Assembly: GCA_021162505.1 (NCBI GenBank)
Contig: JAGGYO010000139.1
Coordinates: 1 to 34,210, forward strand
Reading direction: 5' to 3'
Source of the DNA: a bacterium
GTDB lineage: Bacteria > AUK180
DNA length: 34,210 bases
Shown: positions 2,563-22,069 of the stretch, piece by piece
Numbering within the stretch: the first letter of the stretch is position 1
Layout: every line of letters begins with the position of its first letter
The notes under the pieces: model-generated
What the model saw: the letters and a program-made list of their open reading frames with translations, nothing else
Told to the model about the DNA's origin: nothing
The model's database searches: none
Translations under genes and position numbers: made by a program

Positions 2563-3165
2563 ATGATAATTAATTTTATTGAGGATTTGAAAAAAATGGA
2601 ACTTCCAAAGAATGTTTTGGAATTTGAAAATTCATTGAATGATTTTAAAAAACAATTTTTCCATGAGTACAAAAACATCTATATCGAATCGCATTTTGCC
2701 GCAGAAGATATGGTACAATTGGAGTTCACAGAAGAAAAACTAAGATTTTCCTTTGCAAATATTTATATTATCCTGGAAAAGATCGATAGTGTTCTCATTA
2801 GGTTCAGAGAACAATTTCCCCCAATGGATCCCGACTTTGTTATTTTTTTTGGTTTTTTTTCTCCTGATGGTTTTTTAATGTCCATAGAAGATAAGTGGTA
2901 TCCAACGATCTGTCTTGACCGTTTCTTTGATTATTTTAAGATAGAATCGGTTGCAGCACATGAACTTGGGCACTATTTTTTTAAAAATTCAGGGATAAAA
3001 TATGACCTGGATAAAGAAGAAATCTTTGCAAATTATTTATCCACAAAAATATTAAAGACCTGCTATAATAATGTAATATTTGATGATGGTAAGGCAATAC
3101 CCATGATATCCAATTCGGATAGGTTTTGGTTAGATGCTGAGATCAGGAAAACAATTAGCACATGA
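2563..3165 (+). CDS. Hypothetical protein with HExxH zinc-metallopeptidase motif
   Basis: 200-aa ORF. The only recognisable signature is VAAHELGHYFF. No signal peptide is evident. Confidence 0.45.
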   Translation: MIINFIEDLKKMELPKNVLEFENSLNDFKKQFFHEYKNIYIESHFAAEDMVQLEFTEEKLRFSFANIYIILEKIDSVLIRFREQFPPMDPDFVIFFGFFSPDGFLMSIEDKWYPTICLDRFFDYFKIESVAAHELGHYFFKNSGIKYDLDKEEIFANYLSTKILKTCYNNVIFDDGKAIPMISNSDRFWLDAEIRKTIST

Positions 3166-3202
3166 GTGCTAAGTATTGCGTAGGATAAATAAAGGAGGAA
3201 AT

Positions 3203-3616
3203 ATGAAGGATCTGGATGTTAAGTTTTTGAATGTAAAAATAAGTACATTCTATTTTACTGATATTTTAGGGAAAGAGGTTTCTGAAACATTGATTGACGA
3301 ATATGATAAGATAATACGAAAGGCAAAAAAGATGCGTGTTCCCAAGGAAGAAAGTGTAGCATATTTTTTAATGGTAGAGAAATTAAAGGCAATGGATTCA
3401 TCCATGAATTACCCTCCCGCTAAATTGCGTATGCAAAAGAATCTGAAGAAATTTGCCAAAAAGATGGAAATATCATACGATCTAATGCCTTATTTTTTCA
3501 TTGCCATTTTTGAAAGATATCCTAATAAAAATGAAGTACTTCTTGACCTTGTTTTACAAGTTGCTATTGAATTTGTCGCACTGATTCTTATATTGAAAAA
3601 GAAAAAGAATTTGTAA
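3203..3616 (+). CDS. Hypothetical protein
   Basis: The ORF is open from 3176. The ATG at 3203 sits 5 nt after AAAGGAGGA, so I prefer it as the start. The C-terminal segment is hydrophobic. I recognise no family. Confidence 0.45.
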   Translation: MKDLDVKFLNVKISTFYFTDILGKEVSETLIDEYDKIIRKAKKMRVPKEESVAYFLMVEKLKAMDSSMNYPPAKLRMQKNLKKFAKKMEISYDLMPYFFIAIFERYPNKNEVLLDLVLQVAIEFVALILILKKKKNL

Positions 3617-3789
3617 AATATGTAAGATAGATATAGGGATCAAGTTTCAACATTTGATTTCGCAAGTTTTGACTGTTTCTGTTTCTTTCGTTTGAAAGAG
3701 GCAAAGAAGCAACCTGGCACTTTTATTACTTTGCGTCTCTGCGGTGAGATCCCTCTGAATGACAAAACCAAAAAAAAAGCAAAATAATT

Positions 3790-3817
3790 TTGAATTTTTA
3801 TAAAAATGTGCTAAAAT
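3790..3817 (+). promoter_or_regulatory. Possible promoter: TTGAAT (3790-3795), 16-nt spacer, extended -10 TGcTAAAAT (3809-3817)
   Basis: It lies at the end of a 229-nt non-coding gap, about 30 nt upstream of the ATG at 3846. AT-rich DNA produces such matches easily. Confidence 0.35.
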
Positions 3818-3845: not shown

Positions 3846-4889
3846 ATGAGTCAAAAGCAGATTACTGTGATCATCATAGAGATAATTTTAATACTCCTTG
3901 GAATTGTTTTCTATTTTATTGGAGACCAGTATTTTAATAAGAAAAACAATATGCAGCACGAAATATTGCAAAAAAATGTTGTTGCCCTAAAAGCAAAATT
4001 GGATGCTTATGAAAAGCTGGATACATCAAATCATTTTACCAAAAAATTTCTTTCACTGCAAAAAGAACAGAACCATCTTGAGGTAACATTTGCAGAAAAT
4101 AATTACAATGAAGCCTTGCAATTATACACTGAACTTATTACAAAGACCGAGAATTTAAAAAGCGAAATCGGAAATTATAATAAAGAACAGGAAATGAATA
4201 TTGAGAGGGGAAAACTTAAAAAACAATTGGCTGCTAAGGACAGGGCTTTAAGAAAAAAGAAAGCCTATGTAAAACCCAAGGTTGCAACCACGCAGCCTAA
4301 GGTGACCAAAACAACTACAACGAAACCTGCTTATACATATGAACCACTTAAAAAGACCAATACCACCACTTCTGAACCAGCTAAGACCACCGAACCCAAA
4401 GTTCAAACAAATACAGTTAGTAATGAGGATAATTCCAATAAGATCGATATAAATAATGCCGGAGCAGAAGAGCTCCAAAAACTTCCTCGAATAGGACCTG
4501 TTAAATCAAAATCAATTATAGATTATAGAAATTCTCATAATGGTTTCCAAAATGTTGATGATCTTGTGAATGTAAGTGGGATCGGACCAAAGACCATGGC
4601 TTCATTAAAACCATTGATATACTGTGGTTCTTATGATGGTGAAAAAAGTGGACAATCTGCGGTAGCAACAAGGACAACAAATAAAGGCAAGATAAATATA
4701 AATACAGCGTCATTCGATAAATTACAAGAACTTCCAAGGGTTGGCCCAAAACTTGCCCAATCAATAATAGATTACAGGAATGAAAATGGAAATTTCAGAA
4801 GTTATGAAGATCTCCTTAATGTGCCGCGAATTGGAGAGAAGACCTTGGAAACCCTTAAACCTTACATAATTTTAGGAGATAATAAATGA
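3846..4889 (+). CDS. Membrane-anchored ComEA-like DNA-binding protein with two helix-hairpin-helix modules
   Basis: 347-aa ORF. It has an N-terminal TM helix (ITVIIIEIILILLGIVFYFIG), a coiled-coil stretch and a T/P/K-rich linker. Two ComEA modules follow: IDINNAGAEELQKLPRIGPVKSKSIIDYRNSHNGFQNVDDLVNVSGIGPKT and ININTASFDKLQELPRVGPKLAQSIIDYRNENGNFRSYEDLLNVPRIGEKT. Confidence 0.8.
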   Translation: MSQKQITVIIIEIILILLGIVFYFIGDQYFNKKNNMQHEILQKNVVALKAKLDAYEKLDTSNHFTKKFLSLQKEQNHLEVTFAENNYNEALQLYTELITKTENLKSEIGNYNKEQEMNIERGKLKKQLAAKDRALRKKKAYVKPKVATTQPKVTKTTTTKPAYTYEPLKKTNTTTSEPAKTTEPKVQTNTVSNEDNSNKIDINNAGAEELQKLPRIGPVKSKSIIDYRNSHNGFQNVDDLVNVSGIGPKTMASLKPLIYCGSYDGEKSGQSAVATRTTNKGKININTASFDKLQELPRVGPKLAQSIIDYRNENGNFRSYEDLLNVPRIGEKTLETLKPYIILGDNK

Positions 4890-6856
4890 AAGTGAGCGAA
4901 CTTTTACAAAATTTCGGTGAGAAAGAACAGAAATACTTCTTGTTTTTAATTAAAGATCTTGACGATGAAAGTAAGGAGAAGTTCTTAAAGGAAATATATG
5001 AACTCAGTGTATTTGAACAAAAATTAGTATTAAATCTTTTACTTCGCCTTTCTCCAATGCAGTTAAAAGCAGTTATTCATAATTCTTTTATTGATGGTCC
5101 GCTAATGATAATCGGGGATGAGGTTTCCTCAAAAAGGGCTATTATCTCCAATAGGATCGCCTACCATTTGATAGTAAGGAATATTAAAGCGGACGAAATA
5201 TTCGGACTTGCTTTTTCAAATTCAAATGCCGGTACCATTATTGACACTATTGGAAATTCACTACCGGATAAATTGATAATCAATATGGATATTAACACCT
5301 ATAATTCACAAGCATTGGAGATATTGAACGATTATGTTTTTGGATCACTTAACATTGAGAAGATAGGTTATAAAGCGTCTCCCAAATTCAGGGTATTGAT
5401 AGCCAGAGAGCAATTGCTATTACTCAAAAGGTCCTTTGAGGAATCAAAGATTCCTTCCAATGAAATAGGTTTTTCATCGCTTGTAAGAGAGATCATTGCA
5501 TTAAAGAGAGATCTTATTTCTCCCGAACAAGCGGAAAAAGATGCTAAGGATGATAAAGCTAAGAAGATAGCAACGATTTATCATATCTATCAGGATAAAT
5601 TATTTAAGAACAATACTTGTGATGTAAATGACCTTATCCGAATGGTTTTAGAGCTTTTTGAAAAATCATCAGAGGTTTTGGACTATTATAAGAACAAATT
5701 TAAAATGATAATTATCGATGATTATCATTATGCGAATCATTCGCAATATAAATTCATTAAAATATTGACCGAAGGGGTTAAAAATATTACCTTTACATCC
5801 GCATATAAGTTAAATGTCTATGGTTGGAATATATCCGGAGAGAATTATTCCAATAAGTTCAAAGAGGATTACGAAAACGGTATTGTTATGGAATATGAAC
5901 GGGAACCCGTAGATGTTGAAGAGATATTAAAAAGAGAGATGTTCTTTGAAACCGGAGAACTGGTGGAAGAATTGGAACCCGCTGAAACTGCTGATTTTAA
6001 TGATTATATTGAAGGTAAAGCTCTAATAAGATTAGAAAAAGAAGATGAGCAAAATGAAACCTCGTTAGTGGTCAATAATATTATTAAGAAAGTACAAGAA
6101 GGTGTACCCTATGAAAAGATGGCAGTTGTTGTAAGGTCCAATAGGCAACTTACTATCTTAAAAAAGGTCTTTACCGGCTCTAATATACCGTTTTTTGTAA
6201 TGGGGGATCAGTTACTATTCAGAGATGAAATAAAGGATGTAATGTCCATGCTTGAATTAGTATATTTCGTTGCAAAAATGAAAACAGAAAAATTGACCGG
6301 AAATGAAAATTTATCTGTTAATAATGTCCTGAAGACCATCTTTCTTGAGATTAAACCATTACAATTAGAATTCAATACTTTTGTCCAGCTTGAAAAGCTC
6401 GCTCTTGAAGAGAGCACGAACATCTATTCCATCATATCCAAGGAAAACGTTGAATCAGATCGGTTTAAAACCCGTTTCCCATTAAAAGATAGAGAGATAA
6501 TTGGATATTTTAGAGAATTGGTGGATACGGTCGTTAGCGAATTAGATGAGTATGATCCCGGTATTTTAATAGAACTTTTGACAAATGAAACACAATATTT
6601 GCATTCACTTGTAGATGAGGGGAAAATGATAGGCAGGTTAAAAGCTGAAAATATAAAATATTTGTTTTTATATGCCAGTGAATTTGTTAAAGAAAATAAG
6701 GCAAAAGGGATTTCCGGTCTGGAAAATTTTGTGAAGAACATTGGTGAAAAGAGAAAAAAACAAAATAAAGAATTAAAGATATATGATAAACATGTTAGGA
6801 TAATCACTCTAAATCGTATAGAGGATATTTCTTATCAGATCTATTATTTAATATAG
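4886..6856 (+). CDS. UvrD/PcrA-family (SF1A) helicase homologue with degenerate ATPase motifs and no motif VI (probable pseudo-helicase)
   Basis: 656-aa intact ORF with an ATGA overlap onto the upstream gene. It is collinear with UvrD: LSPMQLKAV...GPLMIIGDEVSSKR...RIAYHLI (motif I), IFGLAFSNSNAG (Ia), MIIIDDYHYANHSQY (II), ITFTSAYKLNVYGWNIS (III), IPFFVMGDQLLFRDEIKDVMSMLELV, and VRIITLNRIEDIS (V). The protein ends 7 residues after motif V. Confidence 0.7.
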   Translation: MKVSELLQNFGEKEQKYFLFLIKDLDDESKEKFLKEIYELSVFEQKLVLNLLLRLSPMQLKAVIHNSFIDGPLMIIGDEVSSKRAIISNRIAYHLIVRNIKADEIFGLAFSNSNAGTIIDTIGNSLPDKLIINMDINTYNSQALEILNDYVFGSLNIEKIGYKASPKFRVLIAREQLLLLKRSFEESKIPSNEIGFSSLVREIIALKRDLISPEQAEKDAKDDKAKKIATIYHIYQDKLFKNNTCDVNDLIRMVLELFEKSSEVLDYYKNKFKMIIIDDYHYANHSQYKFIKILTEGVKNITFTSAYKLNVYGWNISGENYSNKFKEDYENGIVMEYEREPVDVEEILKREMFFETGELVEELEPAETADFNDYIEGKALIRLEKEDEQNETSLVVNNIIKKVQEGVPYEKMAVVVRSNRQLTILKKVFTGSNIPFFVMGDQLLFRDEIKDVMSMLELVYFVAKMKTEKLTGNENLSVNNVLKTIFLEIKPLQLEFNTFVQLEKLALEESTNIYSIISKENVESDRFKTRFPLKDREIIGYFRELVDTVVSELDEYDPGILIELLTNETQYLHSLVDEGKMIGRLKAENIKYLFLYASEFVKENKAKGISGLENFVKNIGEKRKKQNKELKIYDKHVRIITLNRIEDISYQIYYLI

Positions 6857-6865
6857 GAGGCAAGA

Positions 6866-7096
6866 ATGGGAAAATTTGACAAGTACAAAAAAGCAGGTGA
6901 TCAGACGAATCTTGATAAGTACAAAAAGAAAAGCGGTGAAAGTTTTGAGGAAATTGAAAAAACAATAGAGCAAAAAGACGAGAAACAAGTTGTTCAAGCC
7001 CAACAAAAGGGTTCAACAGGCGGTGCGATATTAATCGTAATATTGGGAGTAGTTACCGTATTGGTCTGGTTTCTCGCTATTTCAAAATTAGGATAA
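6866..7096 (+). CDS. Small tail-anchored membrane protein (charged N-terminal part, single C-terminal TM helix)
   Basis: 76-aa ORF with AGGAGG 5 nt upstream. It carries a duplicated (F/L)DKYKK segment and the C-terminal TM helix GGAILIVILGVVTVLVWFLAI. Confidence 0.55.
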   Translation: MGKFDKYKKAGDQTNLDKYKKKSGESFEEIEKTIEQKDEKQVVQAQQKGSTGGAILIVILGVVTVLVWFLAISKLG

Positions 7097-7103
7097 TTTA
7101 TTG

Positions 7104-8810
7104 ATGAAAAGATTTTTTATTTTATTAACTCTATTGTTCACCGTTTTATTAAGTGCAGGTGAATTAACAGTTACATTCCTTAATATTAATCAAGGAGACA
7201 GCATATTACTATCAATGCCAAATGGTAAGCATTATTTGGTAGATGGCGGTCAACCTGCATACTATGATCCTGTAAAGGATATCTATTATTCCCATTTTGA
7301 TGCCGGCAAAGACATAATTGTTCCTTATTTAAAATCACATGGAATAAAAAAAATCGACGGAATTTTAGGAACACATCCTGATGCGGATCATATTGGCGGT
7401 TTGATCTATGTTATGAATAATTTCCCTGTTGAAAATGCCTATTATACAGGCAAAAGCCATACTTCAATGACATATAAGAATTTTATGCTTGCCATTAAGG
7501 ATAATAATATCAAATATCATGAAATTCGTGATGAAGATATTTTAAATTGGGATGCCAGCGTTTTGATCAATGTACTTGGTCCTACTGAGAATGAAGTTAA
7601 ATATCCGACCAATAATAATAATACATCAATTGTTCTTTATATTAAGTATGGAAATGTTAAATTTTTATTGGCCGGTGATGCAGAATTTAAAGAGGAATCC
7701 CGAATTATTGCAGAATATGGTGAAAACCTGCATGCTGATATTTTAAAGTTCGGTCATCATGGTTCAAAAGGCGCTTCAAGCGCTCCGTTTTTAAAAGCAG
7801 TCAACCCTGATTTCGGTATTTTATCATGCGGGGCTAATAATAAATTCGGCTTCCCTCATAAAGAAACACTGATAAGGATCTATAATGAGAATCCTAAAAT
7901 GAAGATTGTAAGAACCGATTATAATGGGAATATTTCTTTTATTACCGATGGCAAAACCATAAAAATCGAACCTAAAAAGGATAAGGTATTTACAATTTCA
8001 GAGATTTTAAAACAAGAAAACATTGATCTGGTATCCGGGAAAAAAGATTATAGTGTAAATGTTCCTGCTGATATCCAAAAAGTCGATATAAACAAAGCGA
8101 ATAAGGAAGAGCTCATTAGCTTACCCAGGGTGGGTCCTGCAACAGCAGAAAATATATTGAACTATAGAAAAACCCATGGTGCTTTTAAGACCATTCATGA
8201 TATTGTTAATGTCCCGCGTATTGGTGAAAAAACATTTGAAAAGATGGCATCATATATTATGGTTTCGGGTGAGGTAATAAAAAGCAATACTCCAAATGAG
8301 AAAGTAGAAAAAAGTTCGGAGAATGTTTCAAACAATAATTTGATAAATATTAATACTGCATCTTCAAAGGAACTGGAAACATTACCCCGGGTCGGTCCCA
8401 AAACGGCTCAAAATATCATTAATTATAGAAATGAGAACGGGGCTTTCAAAACCATTCATGATATAACAAATGTCCCGCGTATCGGAGAAAAGACATTTCA
8501 GAATTTAAAACCTCATATTATGGTTTCAGGGGAGGTAATCACTACTTCTAATGTCGGAAGCAATAAACAAAATAGTACCACCTATAGTCCCAATATAAAG
8601 AAAGTTAATATTAATACTGCATCGCAAAAAGAACTTGAAACCCTATCAAGGGTAGGACCGAAAACCGCGCAGAATATTATAAACTACAGAACGGAAAACG
8701 GACCATTTAAAAATATTCATGATATAACGAATGTTCCGCGTATCGGAGAAAAGACATTTCAAAATTTAAAACCATATATTACAGTTTCCGAGAATGAAAA
8801 AAAAAAATAA
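7104..8810 (+). CDS. Exported ComEC-type MBL (putative nuclease) domain fused to three ComEA-type helix-hairpin-helix modules
   Basis: Signal peptide MKRFFILLTLLFTVLLSAG. ComEC C-terminal-domain signatures are LTVTFLNINQGDSILL...LVDGG, GTHPDADHIGGL, LLAGDAE, LKFGHHGSKGASS and GILSCGANNKFGFPHKETL...VRTDYNGNI. Three ComEA modules follow. A TTG at 7101 is an alternative start. Confidence 0.8.
   Translation: MKRFFILLTLLFTVLLSAGELTVTFLNINQGDSILLSMPNGKHYLVDGGQPAYYDPVKDIYYSHFDAGKDIIVPYLKSHGIKKIDGILGTHPDADHIGGLIYVMNNFPVENAYYTGKSHTSMTYKNFMLAIKDNNIKYHEIRDEDILNWDASVLINVLGPTENEVKYPTNNNNTSIVLYIKYGNVKFLLAGDAEFKEESRIIAEYGENLHADILKFGHHGSKGASSAPFLKAVNPDFGILSCGANNKFGFPHKETLIRIYNENPKMKIVRTDYNGNISFITDGKTIKIEPKKDKVFTISEILKQENIDLVSGKKDYSVNVPADIQKVDINKANKEELISLPRVGPATAENILNYRKTHGAFKTIHDIVNVPRIGEKTFEKMASYIMVSGEVIKSNTPNEKVEKSSENVSNNNLININTASSKELETLPRVGPKTAQNIINYRNENGAFKTIHDITNVPRIGEKTFQNLKPHIMVSGEVITTSNVGSNKQNSTTYSPNIKKVNINTASQKELETLSRVGPKTAQNIINYRTENGPFKNIHDITNVPRIGEKTFQNLKPYITVSENEKKK
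8081..8783 (+). repeat. Intragenic triplication of a ~180-nt ComEA/HhH module (approx. 8081-8260, 8339-8521, 8601-8783)
   Basis: Modules 2 and 3 are about 85% identical at protein level by eye. They share the near-identical run CGCGTATCGGAGAAAAGACATTTCA(G/A)AATTTAAAACC. Elsewhere they differ at many synonymous positions. Confidence 0.8.
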
Positions 8811-8980
8811 TGATCAAAGAAAAGATTGATAATACGAAGAATATAGAGGTTAATACAGAGAAAAAAGTTCAGCAAGAGGATAATTCCACTAAAGAAATAA
8901 AAAAAGACAAGCCCTTTTTATTAGTGAGCATAGGGATTATGATCATTGTTTTAGCAGGGATTTTTCTAGCGAATAATTAA
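8810..8980 (+). CDS. Small tail-anchored membrane protein (56 aa), below the ORF-track cutoff
   Basis: The ATG at 8810 shares its A with the upstream TAA stop. Translation is MIKEKIDNTKNIEVNTEKKVQQEDNSTKEIKKDKPFLLVSIGIMIIVLAGIFLANN. Its topology matches the 6866 ORF. It may instead be the C-terminus of the upstream gene, reached by a -1 shift at the A11 tract. Confidence 0.4.
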   Translation: MIKEKIDNTKNIEVNTEKKVQQEDNSTKEIKKDKPFLLVSIGIMIIVLAGIFLANN

Positions 8981-9046: not shown

Positions 9047-10054
9047 ATGGACCTTAATTCTATATACAATGATGCGTTAGATGACCTCAAAAATATCAAA
9101 AACAAGGGAGATCTTCCTTTGATAAAGTCAAAATATATTGGTAGAAAAGGAAAAGTGACGGAATTATTCAAAGAACTCACATCTTTGCCAAAGGAAGAGA
9201 GAAAAGATTTTGGCCAAAAGATCAATGAAGTACAAAATAAACTAAAAGAACTTTTTGAAGAACATGAAGAGAAATTCCGTTTAAACGCTTTCAATATAAA
9301 ACTAAACGATATTACTCGAGATGCCTATCCCATAGAATCGGGTAGAACTCATATTTTAAATCAGACATATGAAGACATTTACAATGTATTTAAGTCCATG
9401 GGATTCACCGTGGTTGAAGGACCTGAGATTGAAGACGAATTCCATAATTTTGAGGCATTGAATTTTCCCAAAAGCCATCCGGCAAGGGATACCCAGGACT
9501 CATTCTTTTTTGATGATAAAAGTTTATTGAGGACCCATACTTCTCCAGTGCAGATCAGGATTATGGAAAGTTGGGAACCACCTTTTGCAGTGATCTCTCC
9601 CGGAAAGTGTTATAGACGAGACACAATTGATGCTTCTCACTCCTTTATGTTCAATCAGATCGAGGGTTTCCTTGTTGACGAGGATATTGGTGTGGGGCAT
9701 TTAAAAGCAATTCTCGATATTTTTGTTCAAAAGATATTCGGTGAAGATGTCAAATTCCGCCTAAGACCACATTTCTTTCCGTTTACTGAGCCCAGTATGG
9801 AAATTGACATAGGGTGTATATTCTGCGGTGGCAAGGGATGTAATGTTTGTAAAAATACCGGTTGGATAGAAATTATGGGTGCCGGAATAATTGATCCCAA
9901 TGTATTTACTTTATCAGGTATTGATCCTGAAAAACATTCAGGATTTGCATTCGGTATGGGTGTTGAAAGGATTGCAATGTTAAGGCAAAATATTAATGAT
10001 ATGCGTCTTATTTATGGAAATGATCTGGAATTTTTAAAACAATTCAGAGGTTGA
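9047..10054 (+). CDS. pheS: Phenylalanine--tRNA ligase alpha subunit
   Basis: 335-aa ORF with AAGGAGG upstream. Class II signatures are FPKSHPARDTQDSFF, LRTHTSPVQIR and GFAFGMGVERIAML. pheT follows directly. Confidence 0.95.
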   Translation: MDLNSIYNDALDDLKNIKNKGDLPLIKSKYIGRKGKVTELFKELTSLPKEERKDFGQKINEVQNKLKELFEEHEEKFRLNAFNIKLNDITRDAYPIESGRTHILNQTYEDIYNVFKSMGFTVVEGPEIEDEFHNFEALNFPKSHPARDTQDSFFFDDKSLLRTHTSPVQIRIMESWEPPFAVISPGKCYRRDTIDASHSFMFNQIEGFLVDEDIGVGHLKAILDIFVQKIFGEDVKFRLRPHFFPFTEPSMEIDIGCIFCGGKGCNVCKNTGWIEIMGAGIIDPNVFTLSGIDPEKHSGFAFGMGVERIAMLRQNINDMRLIYGNDLEFLKQFRG

Positions 10055-10057
10055 TTT

Positions 10058-12400
10058 ATGGAATACAGTTTAAAATGGATACAAAAATATATTGACATAG
10101 ACATTCCGGAACGGGAGTTATTTGAAAAATTATCAATGTCCGGTTCAGAAGTTGAGGGTTATAAGGAACTTTTAACCGAAATAGAAAATGTTTGTATTGG
10201 AAAAATACTGAAGATAGAAAAACATCCTAATGCTGATAAATTGCAGTATTGTGATGTAACCGACGGTAAAGAGACATTTAAAGTCGTTTGCGGTGCACAG
10301 AATATACATGAAAAAGATATTATTCCCTTTGCAAAGATCGGTGCCAAACTTCCCGGTGGAGTAAAGATCAAAAAATCTAAGATCAGGGGAGTTGAATCAC
10401 AAGGTATGCTTTGTTCTCAAAAAGAATTGGGTTTTGGAGAAGACCACACGGGAATTTTTATTTTAGATGCTCAGTATAAAGTGGGTGAGAATTTTAAGAA
10501 ATATTTCGATGATATGATCTTTGAAATAGAGATTACACCAAATAGACCTGATCTATTATCCCATATTGGATTGGTAAGAGAGATAGGAGCGCTTTTGGGT
10601 AAGGGAACTCGAAAACCTGCTGTTGAAGAGATCAGAAATACTGTTGATTCTCCCATAAAGGTGAAGATTGAGGCAAAAGATGCTTGTCCAAGATACTCTG
10701 CAATTTATATCAGCGGCATCACTAATGGAGAAAGTACAGAGGAAATTACTTATTTTATTAAAACCATGGGATTGAATTCTAAGGGCTTGCTGGTTGATAT
10801 TTCTAACTTTAATCTTTTTGATATTGGTCATCCTACGCATTTTTTTGATGCGGATAAGATCGATGGAAATATTACGGTCAGATTTGCAAAAAAAGGAGAA
10901 AAATGCACCACCATTGATAAAGAAAATAGGGTATTATCAAATAAAGATCTTGTAATTGCAGATGATAAGAAGATCATTGCTCTTGCAGGTGTAATGGGCT
11001 GCATGAACAGTGAAGTTGATAAAAATACAAAAAACCTATTTATTGAAAGTGCTATTTTTGCACCATCCTATATTAGAGAGACTAAAAAACATTATGGAAT
11101 AATGAGCGATGCGGCATATCGTTTCGAAAGAGGTGTCGACCCGGAAATAACACCGTTTAGCATTAAGAGAGTGGTATACCTTTTAAAGCAAAATACCACA
11201 TTTAGCGGAACCTCGAATATTCTTGATAGTTATCCCGGCAGACGGGATCTTCCCATAATCACTTTAAAAAAGGAAAATGTTGAAAAGATCTTGAATATTG
11301 ATCTTGCATTGGATAAGATCACGGATATTTTACGCTCCCTTGGGTATAAAGTAGAAAAATTGATCAATAACGACATAAAAGTCCTTGTTCCTTCATTTAG
11401 ATCTTATGATACTCTTAGGGAGATTGATCTCATTGAAGAGATCGGTAGAATTTACGGTTTCAATAATGTTCCCGAAATAAGACCCTATATCAGAGGTAAG
11501 GTGAGAACAAATGTGTTTTGGGATTTAAAATTCAAAATAAGAAAATATTTGTCCGGCCGCGGTTTTTATGAAACAATGACCTTCTCTCTCATAGATGAGA
11601 CCTATATAAAAAATTTGGGATATAAAGGCAAGATAAAAAGTTTATCCAACCCCTTAAATATTGAGCAAAACATCTTTTCCCCCTGGATATTTCCTCGTCT
11701 TTTAAGGGTATTGAAGGGTAATTTGAAATATAAAAACAAAAATATTCGTCTTTTCGAAATAAGCCATATTTATGATGGTGAGGAAAAAGAGGCTATCTCA
11801 TTTTTACTTTATGGGAATCAAGAATTGATCAATTGGAGAAATAAAGAACCCAATGAAATGGATATTTTCAACTTAAAAGGTGAACTCAATGCTTTCTTTG
11901 ATTTGATTGGGCAAAATGATCTCATATATAAAAATGAGGAATTACCGTTTTTAGTAAAGGGTAATAGCGGAGGCATTTATAAGGGTGAAGAATATCTTGG
12001 TTTCATTGGTATGGTATCACCGGAATTTCTTCCCTCAAAAAGAATAGAAAAACCTGTTTTTATTGCAGAACTTGTTCTGGAACCTTTATTAAAAAAAGGG
12101 ATCGTAAAATATACTCCAATCTCGCAATATCCGGCTATAGAAAGAGATATATCAATGATATTCAAAAAAGATATTCAGATAAGCGAAATTAAAGCATTAA
12201 TAGAAAAGAATGGCACCGTGAACCTTAGGGAAATAAATCTCATGGATGTATATGAGATGAATGACAAAGAAGATGCCCTTATGTTCAGATTGATCTTTCA
12301 ATCTCAAAGTAAGACATTGAACGATAAAGCAATAGAATATCTCATGGGTAAGATAATAGGATCTCTTGAGGAGAAATTAAGTGGCAGACTTAGAAAATAA
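10058..12400 (+). CDS. pheT: Phenylalanine--tRNA ligase beta subunit
   Basis: 780-aa ORF. It has the N-terminal tRNA-binding domain (IEKHPNADKLQYCDV...GVESQGMLCS). B3/4 and B5 regions and a C-terminal FDX-ACB-like domain follow. It starts 3 nt after pheS. Confidence 0.95.
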   Translation: MEYSLKWIQKYIDIDIPERELFEKLSMSGSEVEGYKELLTEIENVCIGKILKIEKHPNADKLQYCDVTDGKETFKVVCGAQNIHEKDIIPFAKIGAKLPGGVKIKKSKIRGVESQGMLCSQKELGFGEDHTGIFILDAQYKVGENFKKYFDDMIFEIEITPNRPDLLSHIGLVREIGALLGKGTRKPAVEEIRNTVDSPIKVKIEAKDACPRYSAIYISGITNGESTEEITYFIKTMGLNSKGLLVDISNFNLFDIGHPTHFFDADKIDGNITVRFAKKGEKCTTIDKENRVLSNKDLVIADDKKIIALAGVMGCMNSEVDKNTKNLFIESAIFAPSYIRETKKHYGIMSDAAYRFERGVDPEITPFSIKRVVYLLKQNTTFSGTSNILDSYPGRRDLPIITLKKENVEKILNIDLALDKITDILRSLGYKVEKLINNDIKVLVPSFRSYDTLREIDLIEEIGRIYGFNNVPEIRPYIRGKVRTNVFWDLKFKIRKYLSGRGFYETMTFSLIDETYIKNLGYKGKIKSLSNPLNIEQNIFSPWIFPRLLRVLKGNLKYKNKNIRLFEISHIYDGEEKEAISFLLYGNQELINWRNKEPNEMDIFNLKGELNAFFDLIGQNDLIYKNEELPFLVKGNSGGIYKGEEYLGFIGMVSPEFLPSKRIEKPVFIAELVLEPLLKKGIVKYTPISQYPAIERDISMIFKKDIQISEIKALIEKNGTVNLREINLMDVYEMNDKEDALMFRLIFQSQSKTLNDKAIEYLMGKIIGSLEEKLSGRLRK

Positions 12401-12581
12401 TATTGACGAAAGATTTAAAAAGGTAATAAAAAATATATATACCTATTTTAAGAAGGTAGATAAATTAGAAAAGAGGACACTACATTTGAGAAAAGAACTT
12501 TTGCATACGCGAGAGGAACTTTTGGATATTAGAGATTTTTTAGAAGAGGTCAAAAAGAAAAAAGATGATAAAAGAGATTAG
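12381..12581 (+). CDS. Small coiled-coil protein, function unknown
   Basis: 66-aa ORF with a GTG start. It overlaps the pheT end by 20 nt and the next gene by 17 nt. The charged heptad-like sequence suggests a coiled coil. Confidence 0.4.
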   Translation: MADLENNIDERFKKVIKNIYTYFKKVDKLEKRTLHLRKELLHTREELLDIRDFLEEVKKKKDDKRD

Positions 12582-12879
12582 AATAGGTACCATATCCTTC
12601 AAATTGAATTATAAATCGAAGGAAGCCGGACAAAAACTGGATGAGATCCAGGAATACATAGAAAAGAAAATCCAGGTCATTCGCAAAAAAATAGGTAATA
12701 AGGATTTCGATCATATTATGGCCGCGATCATTCTTGATGTACTTGATGAATATTGGGAAGCCATCAGCCCGGGTAAAAAAGTAAATAATAAGGGTACACT
12801 TCTTGACAAAATGGATATCTTGAATAACAAAATATTAGGTAAAATAGAGGAATTAGATGAAAACATGGGTAAATTTTAA
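12565..12879 (+). CDS. zapA: ZapA-like cell-division protein
   Basis: 104-aa ORF. The pattern IRIGTISFKLNYKSKEAGQKLDEIQEYIEKKI...IMAAIILDVLDEY resembles ZapA. zapA downstream of pheST is a known arrangement in some bacteria (e.g. Bacillus). Confidence 0.5.
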   Translation: MIKEIRIGTISFKLNYKSKEAGQKLDEIQEYIEKKIQVIRKKIGNKDFDHIMAAIILDVLDEYWEAISPGKKVNNKGTLLDKMDILNNKILGKIEELDENMGKF

Positions 12880-14305
12880 AAAGATTGGAACTTTTTTTTC
12901 CTGTCCATTGAGGTATAAAAAAATGTATCTTTCAAATAGGGAAAAGGGTTCATGGACCCCGAACAGCAATATTGAGAACTTAAAGAAAAACATTTTAAGG
13001 ATCTTTCAGGAAGAAACAAAATTATTAAAGGGGCGTAAGCCTAATGTTTATGATAATATTGATTTTGAAGAAGGAAAATTAAGTGAAGAAAGATTGAAAC
13101 AATTTCAGGAAAATTTGGATACCTTTCAAAATGAGCACAAACTTTCAAATTTAACCGCATACTCCAAGCCTCTTTTTGTGGGATATAATGACAATATTGG
13201 GCTTTTTGCCAATATAGATATTACCATGAGAGTGAACTCCCAACTCACTGCTGTAATTTTGGAGTTTTACGGTTACCAGAAGAGCGTGGAGACCATTGGT
13301 GATAATAAAGAACATTCTTTTAATTCTTATGTAATAAATGAGAAGATAAAGGGTGTCAAAAATATCCTGTATATTTATCCCAATTTTAATAATATTCTTT
13401 TGGTACCGGTGAGCGAAGAAAATATAGAAGATGGGAAAAAGTATGTTGAGAATTTCGTTCATTCTTTAAATAGCTCTGATTTTAATGCTCCCCCCGGCGG
13501 GTTCTGCGATTATTGTGATTTTCAAGAAGAATGTCCTTCTTGGAAGGAATATCCCTTTGAATTGAGTAAAGAAAAGCGTCGGGAACTTTTCAGATTAAGC
13601 TATTCAAAATTGGATGTTTTTAAGAGATGTCCCTTTTCATATAAAAAGATCTATGTCGAAAAGATCCCACAGCGAAGCAGAGATTTTTTCAGTATAGGAA
13701 CCACTGTACACAATGTGATGGAAGAAATTGAACAATTAGATACACCGCCTACCGTTGATGAAGTTCACGAACTCTATCTTAAACATTGGATATCCAGGGG
13801 TTTTGAAAACAAAGCTCAAGAGGAAGAAGAAAAAAGGTATACCTGGAAATGGTTCAGAAAATACCTGGAAGAGATAGCTTTAAAACCTTTCATTAAAGCA
13901 GAGAACACAGAGCTATATTTTCAATTCCCTATTGAGAAAAAAGTAATGGTAAATGGTTTTATTGATAGAATAGATAAATTGGAAGACGGTACCTATGAGA
14001 TTATTGACTATAAGACAGAAGATTCAATTAGGAGCCAGGAAGATGTTGATCACGATATGCAGCTCACCGTTTACTTTTGGGCGGTAAAAAAATTAGGAAT
14101 GAAGGTTTCAAAAATGAGTCTGCATTTTACGAGATTTCAAAAGATCGTTTCCACTACCCGAAAAGATGATGATATTGAGAAATTTGAAAGAGAGATATCC
14201 AATTGGGTAGATAAGATAAAGGCTGAAGAAGATTTTTCTCCTAAGGAAAACAAATATTGCAATAATTGTGATTTCCGACATATTTGTCCCCTTTTTAAAA
14301 AATGA
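12857..14305 (+). CDS. Tandem-duplicated PD-(D/E)XK nuclease of the Cas4/AddB iron-staple type (two four-cysteine units; only the second has an intact catalytic motif)
   Basis: 482-aa ORF. First half: SCPLRYKK ... CDYCDFQEEC. Second half: RCPFSYKK ... GFIDRIDKLEDGTYEIIDYKT ... QLTVY ... CNNCDFRHIC. Each half shows the C...CxxCx5C pattern. Confidence 0.75.
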   Translation: MKTWVNFKKIGTFFSCPLRYKKMYLSNREKGSWTPNSNIENLKKNILRIFQEETKLLKGRKPNVYDNIDFEEGKLSEERLKQFQENLDTFQNEHKLSNLTAYSKPLFVGYNDNIGLFANIDITMRVNSQLTAVILEFYGYQKSVETIGDNKEHSFNSYVINEKIKGVKNILYIYPNFNNILLVPVSEENIEDGKKYVENFVHSLNSSDFNAPPGGFCDYCDFQEECPSWKEYPFELSKEKRRELFRLSYSKLDVFKRCPFSYKKIYVEKIPQRSRDFFSIGTTVHNVMEEIEQLDTPPTVDEVHELYLKHWISRGFENKAQEEEEKRYTWKWFRKYLEEIALKPFIKAENTELYFQFPIEKKVMVNGFIDRIDKLEDGTYEIIDYKTEDSIRSQEDVDHDMQLTVYFWAVKKLGMKVSKMSLHFTRFQKIVSTTRKDDDIEKFEREISNWVDKIKAEEDFSPKENKYCNNCDFRHICPLFKK

Positions 14306-15921
14306 GCATTGTTTTAAAGGAATTTAAAAAAGAAAAACTCGAAGGTATACCGGAAATAATTTCAGATTTATTGAATATTAGGAAAATCTATACACAAGAA
14401 GAACTTGACGATTATTTTTATCCAAAATTGGGGAAATTATCCAAAGCGGAAAATATCGGTGAACTGATAAAAATAAAAGAGCGTATCTTGGATATAAAAA
14501 AAAGTGGGGAAGGTATTGCGATCTATGGAGATTATGATGTTGATGGTATCACCTCTTCAGTAATATTAGCCAATCTATTTGAAAAACTGGAGATGAAACA
14601 CCATATATATATTCCCAATAGATTTGATGAGGGCTATGGGATTTCACAATTTGGTATTGATGAGATAGAGAAGCTGGGTTTCAAGCATATCATAAGTGTT
14701 GATTGCGGGATCACATCATACGAAGAAGTTGAATATGCAAGATCCAAAGGTATTGAAATAATTATTACCGATCATCATGAAGTTACCGGTAAACTACCTA
14801 ATACATTGATCTTTGATCCAAAACTTTATGATGAAACATATAATTTTCATGATCTTGCAGGATGCGGTGTAGCATTGTTTTTATTTATGAACTTTTTTAG
14901 AAGAGTTGATAATCTATTAAAAAAGATGTTCGCCTTAACTGCTATTGGTACAATTGCGGATGTCGTTCCTTTAAGAGGCGATAATAGAACCATTGTAAAA
15001 TTAGGTCTTGATGCACTAAATACAATGGAAATTGAAGGTATTGATGCCTTAAAAAAGGTATCGGGAATTGACAATGAAAGAATCTCCACATATCATATTG
15101 GTTTCGCCATGGGTCCTCGGTTAAATGCAGGTGGTCGTTTGGAAAGCGCTCAATATGGGGTTGACCTCCTATTGGGAAAGAATGTTCAAGAGAATGCTAA
15201 ATTTCTTAACGATATGAACAATGAAAGAAAAGAATTGCAAAATACAATATTCGAAAAAGCAAAAGAAATGTATAATGAAAAGTCTGCAGGCATCATTCTC
15301 TCTTCTCAAGAGTTCAATCGTGGTGTTAATGGCATAGTTGCATCCAAATTTGTTGAATTTTATCATAAGCCTGCCATTATCCTTGAAGATGTTGACGGCA
15401 TTCTTCATGGTTCGGGACGATCCATCCAGGGCATAGATATAATGAGCATTATTGCTGAATTGAAGAACCTTCTTTTAGCAGGCGGTGGTCATGAAATGGC
15501 CTGCGGTATTACATTAAAAAGAGAAAATTATTCTGAATTCAAAGATAGATTTAATAAAATATTATTAGAGAACTACAGCGAAAAATTAAAGGATAGGGTA
15601 CATTATGCAGATATTGTTCTCGGGATGAGAGAATTTAGTAGAGAAATAGAAGGTTTTCTTGAAAAAATGGAACCTTTTGGTATTGGCAATCCAAAACCGA
15701 AATTTCTTATTGAAAATATTGAGATAATGCAGGATGTTATTTTATTAAAGGATAAATATAAAAAATATATTGCCAAGCAAAGTGGTATGAGATTTAATAT
15801 GCTGGATTGGCGCGGAAAGACGAATTTTGGAAAAAATGAGACAATCAGTGTTATCGGTTTTCCTAAGTTCAATACATTTCGGGGCGTAACTAATGTAGTG
15901 TTGGAATACATTGTGCATTAA
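14302..15921 (+). CDS. recJ: Single-stranded-DNA-specific exonuclease RecJ
   Basis: 539-aa ORF with an ATGA overlap onto the upstream nuclease gene. DHH motifs are IAIYGDYDVDGITS, VDCG and IITDHH. The DHHA1 motif is GGGHEMACG. Confidence 0.9.
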   Translation: MSIVLKEFKKEKLEGIPEIISDLLNIRKIYTQEELDDYFYPKLGKLSKAENIGELIKIKERILDIKKSGEGIAIYGDYDVDGITSSVILANLFEKLEMKHHIYIPNRFDEGYGISQFGIDEIEKLGFKHIISVDCGITSYEEVEYARSKGIEIIITDHHEVTGKLPNTLIFDPKLYDETYNFHDLAGCGVALFLFMNFFRRVDNLLKKMFALTAIGTIADVVPLRGDNRTIVKLGLDALNTMEIEGIDALKKVSGIDNERISTYHIGFAMGPRLNAGGRLESAQYGVDLLLGKNVQENAKFLNDMNNERKELQNTIFEKAKEMYNEKSAGIILSSQEFNRGVNGIVASKFVEFYHKPAIILEDVDGILHGSGRSIQGIDIMSIIAELKNLLLAGGGHEMACGITLKRENYSEFKDRFNKILLENYSEKLKDRVHYADIVLGMREFSREIEGFLEKMEPFGIGNPKPKFLIENIEIMQDVILLKDKYKKYIAKQSGMRFNMLDWRGKTNFGKNETISVIGFPKFNTFRGVTNVVLEYIVH

Positions 15922-19597: not shown

Positions 19598-20155
19598 ATG
19601 GAAGAATTTAGAACCATTGAAGAATCAATGAAATTGCTAAGGGAATATGTAAAAAATGAAAATTTGATCAAGCACATGCTGTCAACCATGGCTGCAATGG
19701 GTGGATTGGCAAAGAAATTCGGTGAAGATGAACATTTGTGGAAGACAGTGGGCTTGCTTCATGATATCGATTATGAGCAAACGGTAAATGATCCCAAAAA
19801 TCATGGCAAAATCGGCAAAGAGATCTTATTGAAAGAGGGTTATCCCCAGATCGTTGCAGATGCAGTTGAGGCACATGTAGGAATGACACCGCGAGATACA
19901 ATGCTCAAAAAAGCCATATATTCCATTGACCCATTAACTGGTATTATCGTAGCGACAGCTCTAATCATGCCGGATAAAAAGATAAATACCGTAAAAGCGA
20001 AATCCGTTAAAAAGCGATTAAAAGAAAAACGATTTGCAGCCAGTGCCAACAGAGAGCCCATCTATGAATCAAGTGAAATGGGATTGGAACTTGACGAGTT
20101 TATTGATATTGTTCTAAATTCAATGAAATCCATTTCCAATGAGTTAGGCTTATAA
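19598..20155 (+). CDS. HD-domain metal-dependent phosphohydrolase
   Basis: 185-aa ORF with AGGAG upstream. It has the HD motif VGLLHDIDYE, an upstream His (IKHMLST) and a downstream His (VEAHVG). Confidence 0.7.
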   Translation: MEEFRTIEESMKLLREYVKNENLIKHMLSTMAAMGGLAKKFGEDEHLWKTVGLLHDIDYEQTVNDPKNHGKIGKEILLKEGYPQIVADAVEAHVGMTPRDTMLKKAIYSIDPLTGIIVATALIMPDKKINTVKAKSVKKRLKEKRFAASANREPIYESSEMGLELDEFIDIVLNSMKSISNELGL

Positions 20156-20212
20156 AAATTGATTTTTTATTAGAAAAATGGTATCATAAGTTGAAAGATG
20201 AAGGGAGCGTAA

Positions 20213-20428
20213 ATGAACATTAAAAAGCGGCCAAATCATAAAATATATATCCGAATACTTCGCAAAATGACCCCGGAACAAAGATTATTAAAAGCATTTG
20301 AATTATCAGAATTTACCATGGAACTGTTCATTCAAGGATTGCACAAGAGATTCCCTGACTTAACAAGTGAAGAATTTCATAAATTATTATTGGAGCGTTT
20401 AGATAAATGTCACAACAGAAATTATTAA
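20213..20428 (+). CDS. Small conserved hypothetical protein, of the type usually found upstream of a nucleotidyltransferase gene (possible antitoxin-like partner)
   Basis: 71-aa ORF. MTPEQRLLKAFELSEF...GLHKRFPDLTSEEFHKLLLERL..CHNRNY resembles a widespread small-protein family. This is recalled from memory, not searched. Confidence 0.5.
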   Translation: MNIKKRPNHKIYIRILRKMTPEQRLLKAFELSEFTMELFIQGLHKRFPDLTSEEFHKLLLERLDKCHNRNY

Positions 20429-20628
20429 AAAAGATCATTCAATCACTGGATAAAATCGGAATTCAATATATGATAACAGGTTCTGTTGTAAATAGGGGAC
20501 GGTGTTTTAAATTTGTTAAATTCTCAGGAAAAAGTTGTGGAATATTTTTATTATACTTTCGCATTTGGCTAAATGTGCAAGTGAAAAGGAAAAGAATGAG
20601 ATTCCTACGGAAACTTTGTTTCCTCTGA
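20407..20628 (+). pseudogene. Truncated nucleotidyltransferase-like gene; only the first ~28 codons (20407-20490) look homologous
   Basis: MSQQKLLKKIIQSLDKIGIQYMITGSVV resembles the N-terminus of small nucleotidyltransferases (pattern ...IPYM(L/I)xGS...). The rest of the reading frame runs into repeat-like non-coding sequence. Confidence 0.35.
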
Positions 20629-20670
20629 ATGACGAAAATCAAGTTGAGAATTGAGAGTAAAAGAAAATGT

Positions 20671-20752
20671 AAATACTGGATTATCGTGTCAAGCACGGAA
20701 TGACCCAGAAATAAATACTGGATTCCTGATCAGGTCAGGAATGCCAGGAAAT
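20671..20752. repeat. Two tandem REP-like hairpin units: AAATACTGGATT-[stem-loop]-GGAATG(A/C)C-(C)AGAAAT
   Basis: Unit 1 is 20671-20712 and unit 2 is 20713-20752. Unit 2 has a perfect 8-bp stem (ATTCCTGA / TCAGGAAT) with a 5-nt loop. Unit 1 has different stem bases (CGTG / CACG) that still pair. Confidence 0.7.
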
Positions 20753-20893
20753 ATTTTTAAAAATAATTTGATTTTTGGAGTTAAAAATGATATTATTCAT
20801 TATGTTTTTATTAAAAAAAAGTATTTATGCATCACATAAAAAGAACAAGTTTTGTGTATAAGTTATGATTATGAATTTTAGGGAGAAGTTTAG

Positions 20894-22069
20894 ATGAAGA
20901 TTGAAAAGATAAAGAAAGAAGATCTTGAAAAAATATGGATATTGGAATCACTATCTTTCGGAATGGGAGAAAAAGCAAAATCCATATTCAAGAAGGAAAT
21001 TGCACAATATGAAGGATATAAGATCATTATTGATAATAAACTCGTAAGTGCAGTTTTTTTTCAAAAAATGTTATTGAATTTTGGTACGGTGTCGTATAAA
21101 ACAGTTGGTATTTCCTATGTTGCAACATTACCTGAGTATAGAGGACAAAAGCATGTAAGAAAAATGTTCGAATATTTAATACCTAAATTTGAAAAAGAAG
21201 ATTATTTTTTCACTTCTCTATATGCATTTAAGATAGAGTATTATAAAAAATTTGATTATGAAACTGTATGTCAAAGTTTGAAATATACCTTTAAACCTGA
21301 AATTGTCCCTTTTTTTAAGGATGAAACATTATATAAGATAGAGTATTTAGAAGATAAACATTTAAAGGATTATGTGAACTATTTTAATAATAACCTATAT
21401 AAGGAATTTAATGGCGCATATAAGAAAAAAGTAGCCAATGAAAAGATATATAATAAATGGATATTGGATCTTGAAGGTTATGTGAGAATTTATCGAATAT
21501 TTTTAAAAGATAAAGAGAATAATACTAAAGGAATGTTCTTTTACGGTATAAAAAGAACTGCTGATCACCACCAAAAGATAACGGTTTTTGAGGTTTTTCT
21601 GGATAATGATATTGCTTATAAAACATTTCTCAATTATTTGGCAAATTTTAGGGATCAGGCAGATGAAATATTTATAAATACAAATTTAGGAGATCGCTTT
21701 GAATACCTGCTTAACACGCTTTATTTTAAAAAAGAGATTGGTACAAAACAAATGCTGAGGATACTAAATTTCCGAAAATTGATCAGTTCTTTAAAGATAA
21801 AAAACGGCTCGTATAATATAGCCATAAAGGATAAAATGATAAAGAAAAATACCGGTAATTATTTCATAAAAATAGAAAATGGGAAAAAGATCATTAAGAA
21901 AAGTGAGCTGAAAAAATCCGGTATGGATATAGGATTGTTTGTAAAACTTTTATTTTTAGACGATGCTTTAGATTTTTATGGATCCAAGGGTTTTCTAAAG
22001 AAAAATGAAATTAAATTTCTACATGCTTTTGAGGAGCGCAAGATTTCCTATGTAACAGAGGATTTTTAA
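20894..22069 (+). CDS. GNAT-family N-acetyltransferase, Eis-like three-domain type
   Basis: 391-aa ORF. The N-terminal GNAT motif A region is GISYVATLPEYRGQKHVRKMFEYLI. The ~390-aa length and long C-terminal extension fit the Eis-like architecture. Confidence 0.6.
   Translation: MKIEKIKKEDLEKIWILESLSFGMGEKAKSIFKKEIAQYEGYKIIIDNKLVSAVFFQKMLLNFGTVSYKTVGISYVATLPEYRGQKHVRKMFEYLIPKFEKEDYFFTSLYAFKIEYYKKFDYETVCQSLKYTFKPEIVPFFKDETLYKIEYLEDKHLKDYVNYFNNNLYKEFNGAYKKKVANEKIYNKWILDLEGYVRIYRIFLKDKENNTKGMFFYGIKRTADHHQKITVFEVFLDNDIAYKTFLNYLANFRDQADEIFINTNLGDRFEYLLNTLYFKKEIGTKQMLRILNFRKLISSLKIKNGSYNIAIKDKMIKKNTGNYFIKIENGKKIIKKSELKKSGMDIGLFVKLLFLDDALDFYGSKGFLKKNEIKFLHAFEERKISYVTEDF

Follow-up and report, generated by a model that had tools for sequence, protein, structure and literature searches.

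The window analysed here is the contig JAGGYO010000139.1 (assembly GCA_021162505.1; GTDB lineage Bacteria; AUK180), taken over its 34,210 nucleotides (nt), and the subject is a row of four genes, named g1 to g4, that lies on its + strand ahead of pheS and pheT. These genes encode a ComEA-type protein, a paralogue of the UvrD/PcrA helicases with destroyed ATPase motifs, a small tail-anchored protein, and a metallo-beta-lactamase (MBL) domain of the ComEC type fused to helix-hairpin-helix (HhH) modules. The initial annotation, made from the sequence alone, had described a five-gene cassette at this place. Its open reading frame (ORF) coordinates, the successive spacings from g1 to g5 (−4, +9, +7, and −1 nt), and the 229-nt gap 5′ of g1 were reproduced, but the cassette has four genes and not five, since the last ORF ('g5') is the frameshifted C-terminal anchor of g4. 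The features are as follows (aa, amino acids; TM, transmembrane).

3790 to 3817, + strand: promoter-like site (TTGAAT, 16-nt spacer, TG-extended TAAAAT), about 29 nt 5′ of the g1 start
3846 to 4889, + strand: g1, predicted inner-membrane-anchored periplasmic DNA-binding protein, 347 aa
4886 to 6856, + strand: g2, predicted cytoplasmic, dead, C-terminally truncated PcrA/UvrD paralogue, 656 aa
6866 to 7096, + strand: g3, predicted tail-anchored protein, 76 aa
7104 to 8810, + strand: g4, predicted Sec-exported ComEC-type MBL domain with three ComEA-type HhH modules, 568 aa
8797 to 8807, + strand: A11 homopolymer at the g4/g5 junction, frameshift site
8810 to 8980, + strand: 'g5', out-of-frame C-terminal K/E-rich linker and putative TM anchor of g4
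9047 to 12400, + strand: pheS and pheT (Pfam assignments), constant neighbours downstream of g4

The g4 protein starts at the ATG in 7104 rather than at the listed TTG in 7101, its orthologues beginning with MKKF, MKRI, or MRRL. It contains a Lactamase_B domain (PF00753, residues about 20–290), followed by three HHH_3 modules (at 327, 414, and 501). The MBL part corresponds to the last third of the ComEC/Rec2 model TIGR00361 (positions 429–663; E 3e-39; 134.7 bits for a cutoff of 190.05) and aligns over its full length to the ComEC nuclease domain of PDB 9ic4 (E 1e-38), as well as to the full-length ComEC structures 30bt and 9vc6. Its metal-ligand motifs are intact (D32, H91-x-D93-x-D95-H96, D192, and H218-H219), and its N-terminus is signal-peptide-like by hydropathy (MKRFFILLTLLFTVLLSA ahead of GE). 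These features bear out the ComEC-type MBL domain with three HhH modules and a putative signal peptide that had been announced from the sequence. In both g1 and g4, the HhH modules exceed the ComEA-repeat cutoff by far and match the ComEA structures 8dss and 8dfk; g4 also reaches 222.3 bits against the full-length comEA model TIGR01259, but only by way of its repeated modules. On the other hand, neither the Competence domain (PF03772) nor the OB fold (DUF4131, PF13567) was matched in g4. Judged by its domains, g4 is not a ComEC: it has no channel, no OB fold, and a score below the cutoff.

The HhH modules of g4 evolve in concert. In the orthologue at 12223–14292 of the related locus L001, modules 1 and 2 share 100% identity over 60 aa, against 88% for module 3, which points to a recent tandem duplication or gene conversion. 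Both the number of modules (2 to 4) and the C-terminal ending of the protein (a fourth HhH or a TM helix) differ among lineages.

This C-terminal ending explains 'g5', which had been taken for a second tail-anchored microprotein. The g4 stop comes right after the A11 run, g5 starts on the g4 stop codon, and no Shine-Dalgarno (SD) sequence precedes it. Adding one A, or removing two, joins g4 and g5 in a single ORF of 625 aa that would end with the hydrophobic helix of g5 (36–54, by hydropathy). In the closest relatives, L021 and L022 (84–86% identical), g4 is one ORF, in which a K/S-rich linker and a TM helix are colinear with g4 plus g5 of the window. Elsewhere among the relatives, g4 is 656–695 aa long and ends in an acidic linker and a fourth, degenerate HhH, with nothing resembling g5. 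Given the missing SD, the A11 run at the junction, and the uninterrupted g4 of L021 and L022, we read g5 as the frameshifted C-terminal membrane anchor of g4 and not as an independent gene. The shift may reflect an assembly or homopolymer sequencing error, or a genuine mutation; since poly(A) runs can cause slippage, it may also mark a site that yields both a soluble and an anchored g4.

In g1, a predicted N-terminal TM helix (8–26; hydropathy value (KD) 2.94, with Lys on its N-terminal side) is followed by a helical stalk of about 100 aa, a T/P/K-rich linker, and two HhH modules (200–260 and 283–343). The protein matches HHH_3 (PF12836) in 2 stretches (E 3.7e-46) and TIGR00426 with 120.9 bits (cutoff 53.1), which, together with the hydrophobic helix, agrees with the membrane-anchored ComEA with two HhH modules of the initial annotation. 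With 144.9 bits against TIGR01259, below the cutoff of 152.35, g1 is ComEA-like by its sequence and just under the threshold of the full-length model. Its orthologues are 46–55% identical overall. Module 2 is 67–75% identical to the g4 modules of the same genome and 60–70% identical to its own orthologues.

The second gene encodes the most unusual protein of the row. g2 carries UvrD-helicase (PF00580) and UvrD_C (PF13361) domains, a 50-aa N-terminal extension, and no TM segment by hydropathy. Its scores against the curated equivalog models remain far from their cutoffs (given in brackets), i.e., 173 bits for PcrA (911), 178 for Rep (951), and 112 for UvrD (1144). An alignment with PcrA locates the changes in the ATPase motifs:

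motif I (Walker A): AGAGSGKT in PcrA, GDEVSSKR in g2
motif II: DEYQD in PcrA, DDYHY in g2
motif III: GDxDQSIYxWRGA in PcrA, TSAYKLNVYGW in g2
motif IV: NYRS in PcrA, YER in g2
motif VI (Arg finger): present in PcrA, absent in g2, which ends with ...ISYQIYYLI just past motif V

The cytoplasmic UvrD homologue with dead ATPase motifs that had been proposed is thus recovered, motifs I, III, and IV being destroyed, motif II altered, and motif VI absent. All the orthologues share these changes and the C-terminal end, with a Walker A of the form GD[EQ][VI]S[SM]KR. P0180, a family member with 39% identity, reads LGDAVSNKR and DEYHY and ends in ...ILFFMI; in the fragment P0182, the Walker Lys is gone too (SDSAIVRE). 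The ORF length (654–660 aa) is maintained in lineages down to 39% identity. Moreover, g2 retains the four-subdomain SF1A fold, as indicated by its two Pfam domains and by its AF2 model (pLDDT 79.9), for which Foldseek returns PcrA, UvrD, and Rep (1pjr, 4c30, 2is1, and 1uaa; E ~1e-21); the next matches are chains of AddAB, AdnAB, and RecBCD, which add no functional clue. Between the window and its closest relative L021, pN is 0.079 for g2, 0.066 for g3, 0.090 for PheS, and 0.146 for PheT, synonymous sites being saturated. Because g2 lies below PheS and its substitutions are the same in all orthologues, it is, on this comparison of sequences, a conserved pseudo-enzyme under strong purifying selection and not a pseudogene.

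The g2 family is very restricted. It forms 3 close clusters among 5.8 billion proteins and occurs in 6 of 185,579 GTDB species; a profile search of 1.84 billion representatives gave P0002, P0180, and two fragments, then ordinary active helicases. Scanning the JGI metagenomes with the family profile produced only ordinary helicases at 26–29% identity. Two active PcrA-like helicases from other metagenomes, P0183 and P0188, share the N-terminal extension of about 50 aa, and the dead family probably derives from this extended PcrA subfamily. Inheritance of the pairing from an active helicase–ComEA module was considered and rejected, since the neighbourhood of P0183 (L027) contains no ComEA-like gene.

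g3 is the tail-anchored microprotein announced as the first of two, and it is retained. It combines a Lys-rich, predicted cytoplasmic N-terminal part, including a duplicated DKYKK motif, with a C-terminal TM helix (54–72, by hydropathy), and it has a strong SD (aggagg). The relatives are 57–63% identical, with 34 invariant columns, and a profile search found only 21 such proteins in 5.8 billion. Domain scans assigned neither g3 nor g5 to a known family. A gene for an MBL-HhH protein follows g3 in every contig that reaches that far, including those of a distant clade without g1 and g2 at that locus.

The initial annotation had suggested comparing the neighbourhood in related genomes, and the row is indeed syntenic there. 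The genes g1-g2-g3-g4 are contiguous in about seven lineages (L001/L002/L003, L004, L005, L006/L015–L017, L021/L022/L010, and L023). Upstream, five different neighbours were encountered, i.e., two hypothetical genes, an MFS gene, an Na/Ca exchanger, an M14 peptidase on the other strand, and a helix-turn-helix gene. Downstream, the order is always pheS, pheT, a small ORF, a ZapA-like gene, and a PD-(D/E)XK nuclease. In the distant clade (L012 and L018–L020; g3 36–42% identical), the order is CorA, g3, MBL-HhH with 2 to 3 modules, and pheS, and g1 and g2 are missing there. In L024, P0180 comes after a g1 homologue of 357 aa, and the 164 nt of non-coding DNA downstream of it contain no start of a g3. 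Since distant relatives hold the pairs on separate contigs, the conserved cores are, from these gene orders, (g1, g2) and (g3, g4, pheS), and the four genes are not an indivisible cassette. The families of both pairs are very rare and turned up only in contigs from this group of uncultured bacteria; the operon was most likely inherited vertically.

The NCBI labels of the relatives' metagenome-assembled genomes are inconsistent (bacterium, Ca. Calescamantes, Ca. Dependentiae, and Ca. Atribacteria). Some of these assemblies have faults: a run of N lies inside g4 in L021 (~6120–6230), and g2 is split into several ORFs in L023 (2595–4011). This fragmentation is not to be taken as pseudogenisation.

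The arrangement of the genes, by contrast with their conservation, says little about their linkage. They are co-directional and tightly spaced, as had been described, but this does not distinguish a cassette: of the 29 junctions in the window, 21 have gaps of at most 10 nt (median 0), plainly unrelated gene pairs included, so that conservation is the only evidence that links g1 to g4. From 1767 to 33424, the + strand carries all the ORFs of at least 100 aa, save a few short nested minus-strand ORFs. Unrelated genes overlap in the window, as do those for glycogen synthase and BamA, and GC skew is positive in each 1-kb window from 1001 on. The skew and the placement of genes on one strand are consistent with a long leading-strand segment in a compact genome.

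The transcription unit would reach beyond the row. The unit had been closed at 8980, a limit that we abandon: no terminator-like site was found between g4 and pheS in the window, and pheS, at +66 nt here, follows g4 at 1–2 nt in several relatives (L001, L005, and L015). In others, the gap is 20–24 nt (L012 and L018) or 54 nt (L021), and pheS-pheT comes after g4 in all the lineages examined. The short gaps and the missing terminator therefore indicate that the unit probably extends into pheST. At its 5′ end, a consensus scan found the plausible extended −10 promoter that had been noticed before (TTGAAT-16-TGcTAAAAT). The site is present, and L010 and L021 conserve the g1-proximal ~70 nt of the leader, in which the TG and the two hexamers lie, but such sites are no commoner in the region than in shuffled sequences (37 vs. 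33.5 ± 6.3). Relative to the same two relatives, the leader of the window has an insertion of about 60 nt (3640–3700). The 229-nt leader folds no better than shuffles (z = −1.08), and scans of the window with Rfam (gathering thresholds) and for tRNA gave no match.

The window encodes PGI, pheST, RecJ, LemA, an M48 peptidase, SurE, PCMT, glycogen synthase, BamA, Skp, LpxD, FabZ, LpxA, and CysRS. Because BamA, Skp, LpxD, FabZ, and LpxA are among them, the host is, by gene content, a diderm, and Sec-exported proteins are predicted to reach the periplasm. The absence of a ComEC channel domain, stressed in the initial annotation, is true of the window ORFs of at least 100 aa, in which PF03772, dprA, comF, and pilus genes were not found over the 34 kb; the 10-kb flanks of the relatives were likewise free of Competence-domain, DprA, ComF, and pilus genes.

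Some neighbours may be mentioned for themselves. After pheST, at 12565–15921, come genes in overlapping frames for a ZapA-like small protein, a 482-aa PD-(D/E)XK/Cas4-like nuclease, and RecJ; the order pheT, small ORF, ZapA-like, and PD-(D/E)XK is kept in L001, L005, and L015, with an S9 peptidase in place of RecJ in L001 and L015. This pair of DNA-end-processing proteins (PD-(D/E)XK and RecJ) is thus encoded close to the DNA-binding genes. Upstream, at 2563–3616, lie a 200-aa hypothetical gene with an HELGH zinc-peptidase-like motif and weak DUF5700/M78 matches, and a 146-aa ORF without family; ORFs of similar size and position precede g1 in L010 and L021. The largest non-coding gap (20155–20894, 738 nt) contains short overlapping ORFs (20213–20428 and 20407–20628), of which the former has a weak Rv0078B-antitoxin-like match (E 0.006), and may be a degraded toxin-antitoxin remnant.

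Taken together, we incline, with reserve, to consider g1–g4 as an inner-membrane device that captures and degrades DNA in the periplasm and that is made from free-standing parts of competence proteins. In this device, g4 would be an Mn/Zn-dependent MBL nuclease, exported via its Sec signal peptide, and its three HhH modules would hold the nuclease on duplex DNA in replacement of the ComEC OB fold. The C-terminal TM helix ('g5') would tether g4 to the membrane in this subclade. g1 would act as a membrane-anchored, long-stalked double-HhH DNA receptor, with g2 as its non-enzymatic cytoplasmic partner, which would have lost ATP hydrolysis, and g3 as the tail-anchored small partner of g4. The products could be (oligo)nucleotides for salvage, or else a processed strand passed to a ComEC channel encoded elsewhere; probable co-transcription with pheST and the many HhH modules make us lean slightly toward a constitutive scavenging role. 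Taken by itself, the MBL domain of ComEC is an endo- and 5′-exonuclease with negligible DNA affinity and is stimulated by the attached OB fold (PMC12455585). Moreover, the coating of DNA by ComEA leads to fewer internal and more 5′-terminal cuts by the ComEC nuclease (PMC13539106). Thus, as this nuclease is tuned both by an attached DNA-binding domain and by ComEA-coated DNA, an MBL-HhH fusion is mechanistically sensible. The DNA capture and degradation, for nutrition or uptake, that had been imagined at the outset is in agreement with the domains and the predicted topology; the closed cassette and the five-gene unit on which it was built are not kept.

Several points weigh against such a device. 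The distant relatives carry g1+g2 and g3+g4 on separate contigs, and the two pairs may not cooperate; the tight spacing of the four genes is ordinary for this genome. No precedent is known for a dead helicase of the cytoplasm that takes part in a periplasmic process, and g1 offers only ~7 cytoplasmic residues for a contact with g2. Signal cleavage and topology are predicted by hydropathy and the positive-inside rule. Finally, neither the window nor the 10-kb flanks of the relatives showed a gene for a secretin, a type IV pilus, or ComEC, which leaves the route of DNA entry into the periplasm unexplained.

These points bring other explanations into play. It is possible, although doubtful, that we are dealing with a split ComEC, in which an MBL-less channel would be encoded elsewhere, g4 would act in trans as its nuclease, on the model of EndA in Streptococcus pneumoniae, and g1 would be the ComEA receptor. 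The four genes would then belong to an ordinary competence machine with its remaining components beyond the window. Indeed, a Competence-domain protein or fragment is found in 96% of bacterial genomes, and Lactamase_B is present in only 52% of Competence-domain proteins (PMC6299819). In S. pneumoniae, where the MBL domain of ComEC is inactive, the separate membrane nuclease EndA works in trans with this ComEC, giving a precedent (PMC12455585), and the N-terminal helix and MBL domain of g4 align with the last TM helix and C-terminal domain of ComEC (positions 429–663 of TIGR00361). On the other hand, neither a dead helicase nor a set of five to six HhH modules per cassette is known from competence systems. 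The competence regulons of model organisms are inducible, unlike the probable constitutive co-transcription with pheST. We find it rather unlikely that g3+g4 (with pheST) and g1+g2 are two unrelated modules brought side by side by genome compactness. The short junctions throughout the window, the g3+g4+pheS group that stands behind CorA without g1/g2 in L012 and L018–L020, and the g1+g2 pair of L024, with 164 non-coding nt and no g3 start behind it, would all fit such a neighbourhood; against it speak the same ComEA-type HhH family in both modules, with module 2 of g1 close to those of g4, the four genes kept together in about seven lineages through five upstream changes, and the confinement of both very rare families to the same uncultured group.

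The remaining explanations have little room. A machine independent of ComEC, in which g1 would capture DNA, g4 would cut it, and a strand or signal would pass through a helix bundle of g1, g3, and the g4 tail to g2, acting as an ATP-independent receptor or scanner of single-stranded DNA in the manner of RecC/AddB, is quite improbable in our opinion; if true, it would be a new coupling of extracellular DNA processing to the cytoplasm. An anti-phage defence function, of the type that unites a UvrD-like helicase and an MBL nuclease (DRT reverse transcriptase-associated genes, Gabija GajB), comes to mind from the PADLOC matches of g2 to RTasHel (105 bits) and GajB (100 bits) and of g4 to LmuA-type MBL (89 bits), RTasMBL (60 bits), and Avs1a (43 bits). 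These scores are superfamily-level and under those for PcrA/Rep and ComEC, and genes for a reverse transcriptase, GajA, or any other partner are missing from the neighbourhood. Moreover, g2 is a dead helicase, g4 carries ComEA modules and is predicted to be exported, and the context is housekeeping, vertically conserved, and no defence island. We therefore rejected defence, to which we grant a very slight probability. Slighter still is that of a locus reduced to a ComEA and a secreted nuclease, with g2 a decaying pseudogene and g5 a chance ORF. Admittedly, the catalytic motifs of g2 are destroyed, its C-terminus is truncated, and g5 is indeed no gene; but the ORF of g2 stays full-length down to 39% identity, with unchanged substitutions and C-terminal end, its pN is below that of PheS with saturated synonymous sites, and its AF2 model is confident, so that its decay is ruled out by the conservation data.

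If the reading of g1–g4 as a periplasmic capture and degradation device is right, the locus provides a natural case of a ComEC nuclease domain freed from its channel, fused to ComEA modules, and given its own small membrane partner. As a minimal system, it could serve to study the way in which a nuclease is directed by ComEA modules, and it suggests a candidate function (e.g., salvage of extracellular DNA) for the thousands of stand-alone 'ComEC family' MBL proteins that are mis-annotated as competence proteins. The pairing of g2 with a membrane DNA receptor is unexplained and, if the two are functionally linked, would put the SF1 fold to a new use. The scope stays that of a handful of uncultured lineages, with no direct bearing on a long-standing open question.

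Three known kinds of protein are recognised at this locus, i.e., ComEA, the ComEC nuclease domain, and the stand-alone MBL hydrolases, the unexplained part being the conserved dead helicase. For the latter, the closest analogy is with RecC and AddB, catalytically degenerate subunits of SF1 helicase fold that serve as DNA-binding scaffolds: g2 likewise combines an SF1A fold with degenerate motifs that selection has maintained, and AddAB and RecBCD chains are among its Foldseek matches. However, g2 is far closer to PcrA/UvrD/Rep and is without a nuclease domain. Unlike RecC and AddB, it has no active SF1 helicase in its window and hence no adjacent motor subunit, and the nearest PD-(D/E)XK gene (12857–14305) is parted from it by pheST and the ZapA-like gene.

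As for g4, its region ~20–285 aligns with the C-terminal nuclease domain of ComEC/Rec2 (Moorella/Neomoorella; 9ic4, 30bt, and 9vc6; PMC8579336, PMC12455585, and PMC13539106), with the H-x-D-x-D-H and other metal-ligand motifs intact. In both, the domain comes right after a hydrophobic helix and lies, in g4 by prediction, on the outer side of the inner membrane. The difference is that g4 appears to be a separate exported polypeptide, without the Competence channel and OB fold, and that it is fused to 3 to 4 HhH modules of the ComEA type and ends, in this subclade, in a predicted C-terminal TM anchor. With EndA, g4 would share the position of a membrane-tethered nuclease that is apart from the channel and degrades DNA on the outside of the cytoplasmic membrane. 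EndA has a beta-beta-alpha-Me nuclease fold, unrelated to that of g4. The extracellular DNA nuclease of Haloferax was set aside as a parallel, being an unrelated thermonuclease.

The stand-alone ComEC-type MBL proteins are also close to g4. We counted 2,361 homologues at E ≤1e-10, mostly of ~290 aa with PF00753 only and 37–49% identical to g4, which bear the names 'MBL fold metallo-hydrolase', 'ComEC/Rec2 family competence protein', or 'competence protein ComEC' in the databases. Some are fused to other domains, i.e., LTD (Lysinibacillus), OB, TPR, and occasionally HHH_3 (P0040, P0090, P0099, P0129, and P0140). g4 belongs to the same MBL subfamily, has no channel domains, as they do, and, as is usual among them, carries a putative N-terminal signal or anchor. 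Most of them, however, are without HhH, and the g3 partner, the array of 3 to 4 modules, the C-terminal anchor, and the g1/g2 neighbours are found only in the present lineage. Two unrelated MBL-HHH_3 proteins, P0090 and P0140 (L013 and L014), were excluded as parallels, as they lie in other contexts with no g1, g2, or g3. In the literature, we found no characterisation of stand-alone ComEC-type MBL proteins, no description of their fusion with ComEA, and no dead UvrD tied to competence. The composition, which the initial annotation did not recognise as a described system, is nevertheless not new in all its components, as stand-alone ComEC-type MBL proteins are very common and some have HHH_3.

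Lastly, g1 resembles ComEA (PDB 8dss, 8dfk, and 2duy) by its HHH_3/TIGR00426 DNA-binding modules, and more particularly the ComEA of monoderms by its predicted N-terminal membrane anchor and periplasmic orientation. It differs from ComEA in having two modules, a helical stalk of ~100 aa, and a T/P-rich linker, no SLBB or oligomerisation domain being detected in it, and in being paired with a dead helicase instead of comEC/holA-type neighbours.

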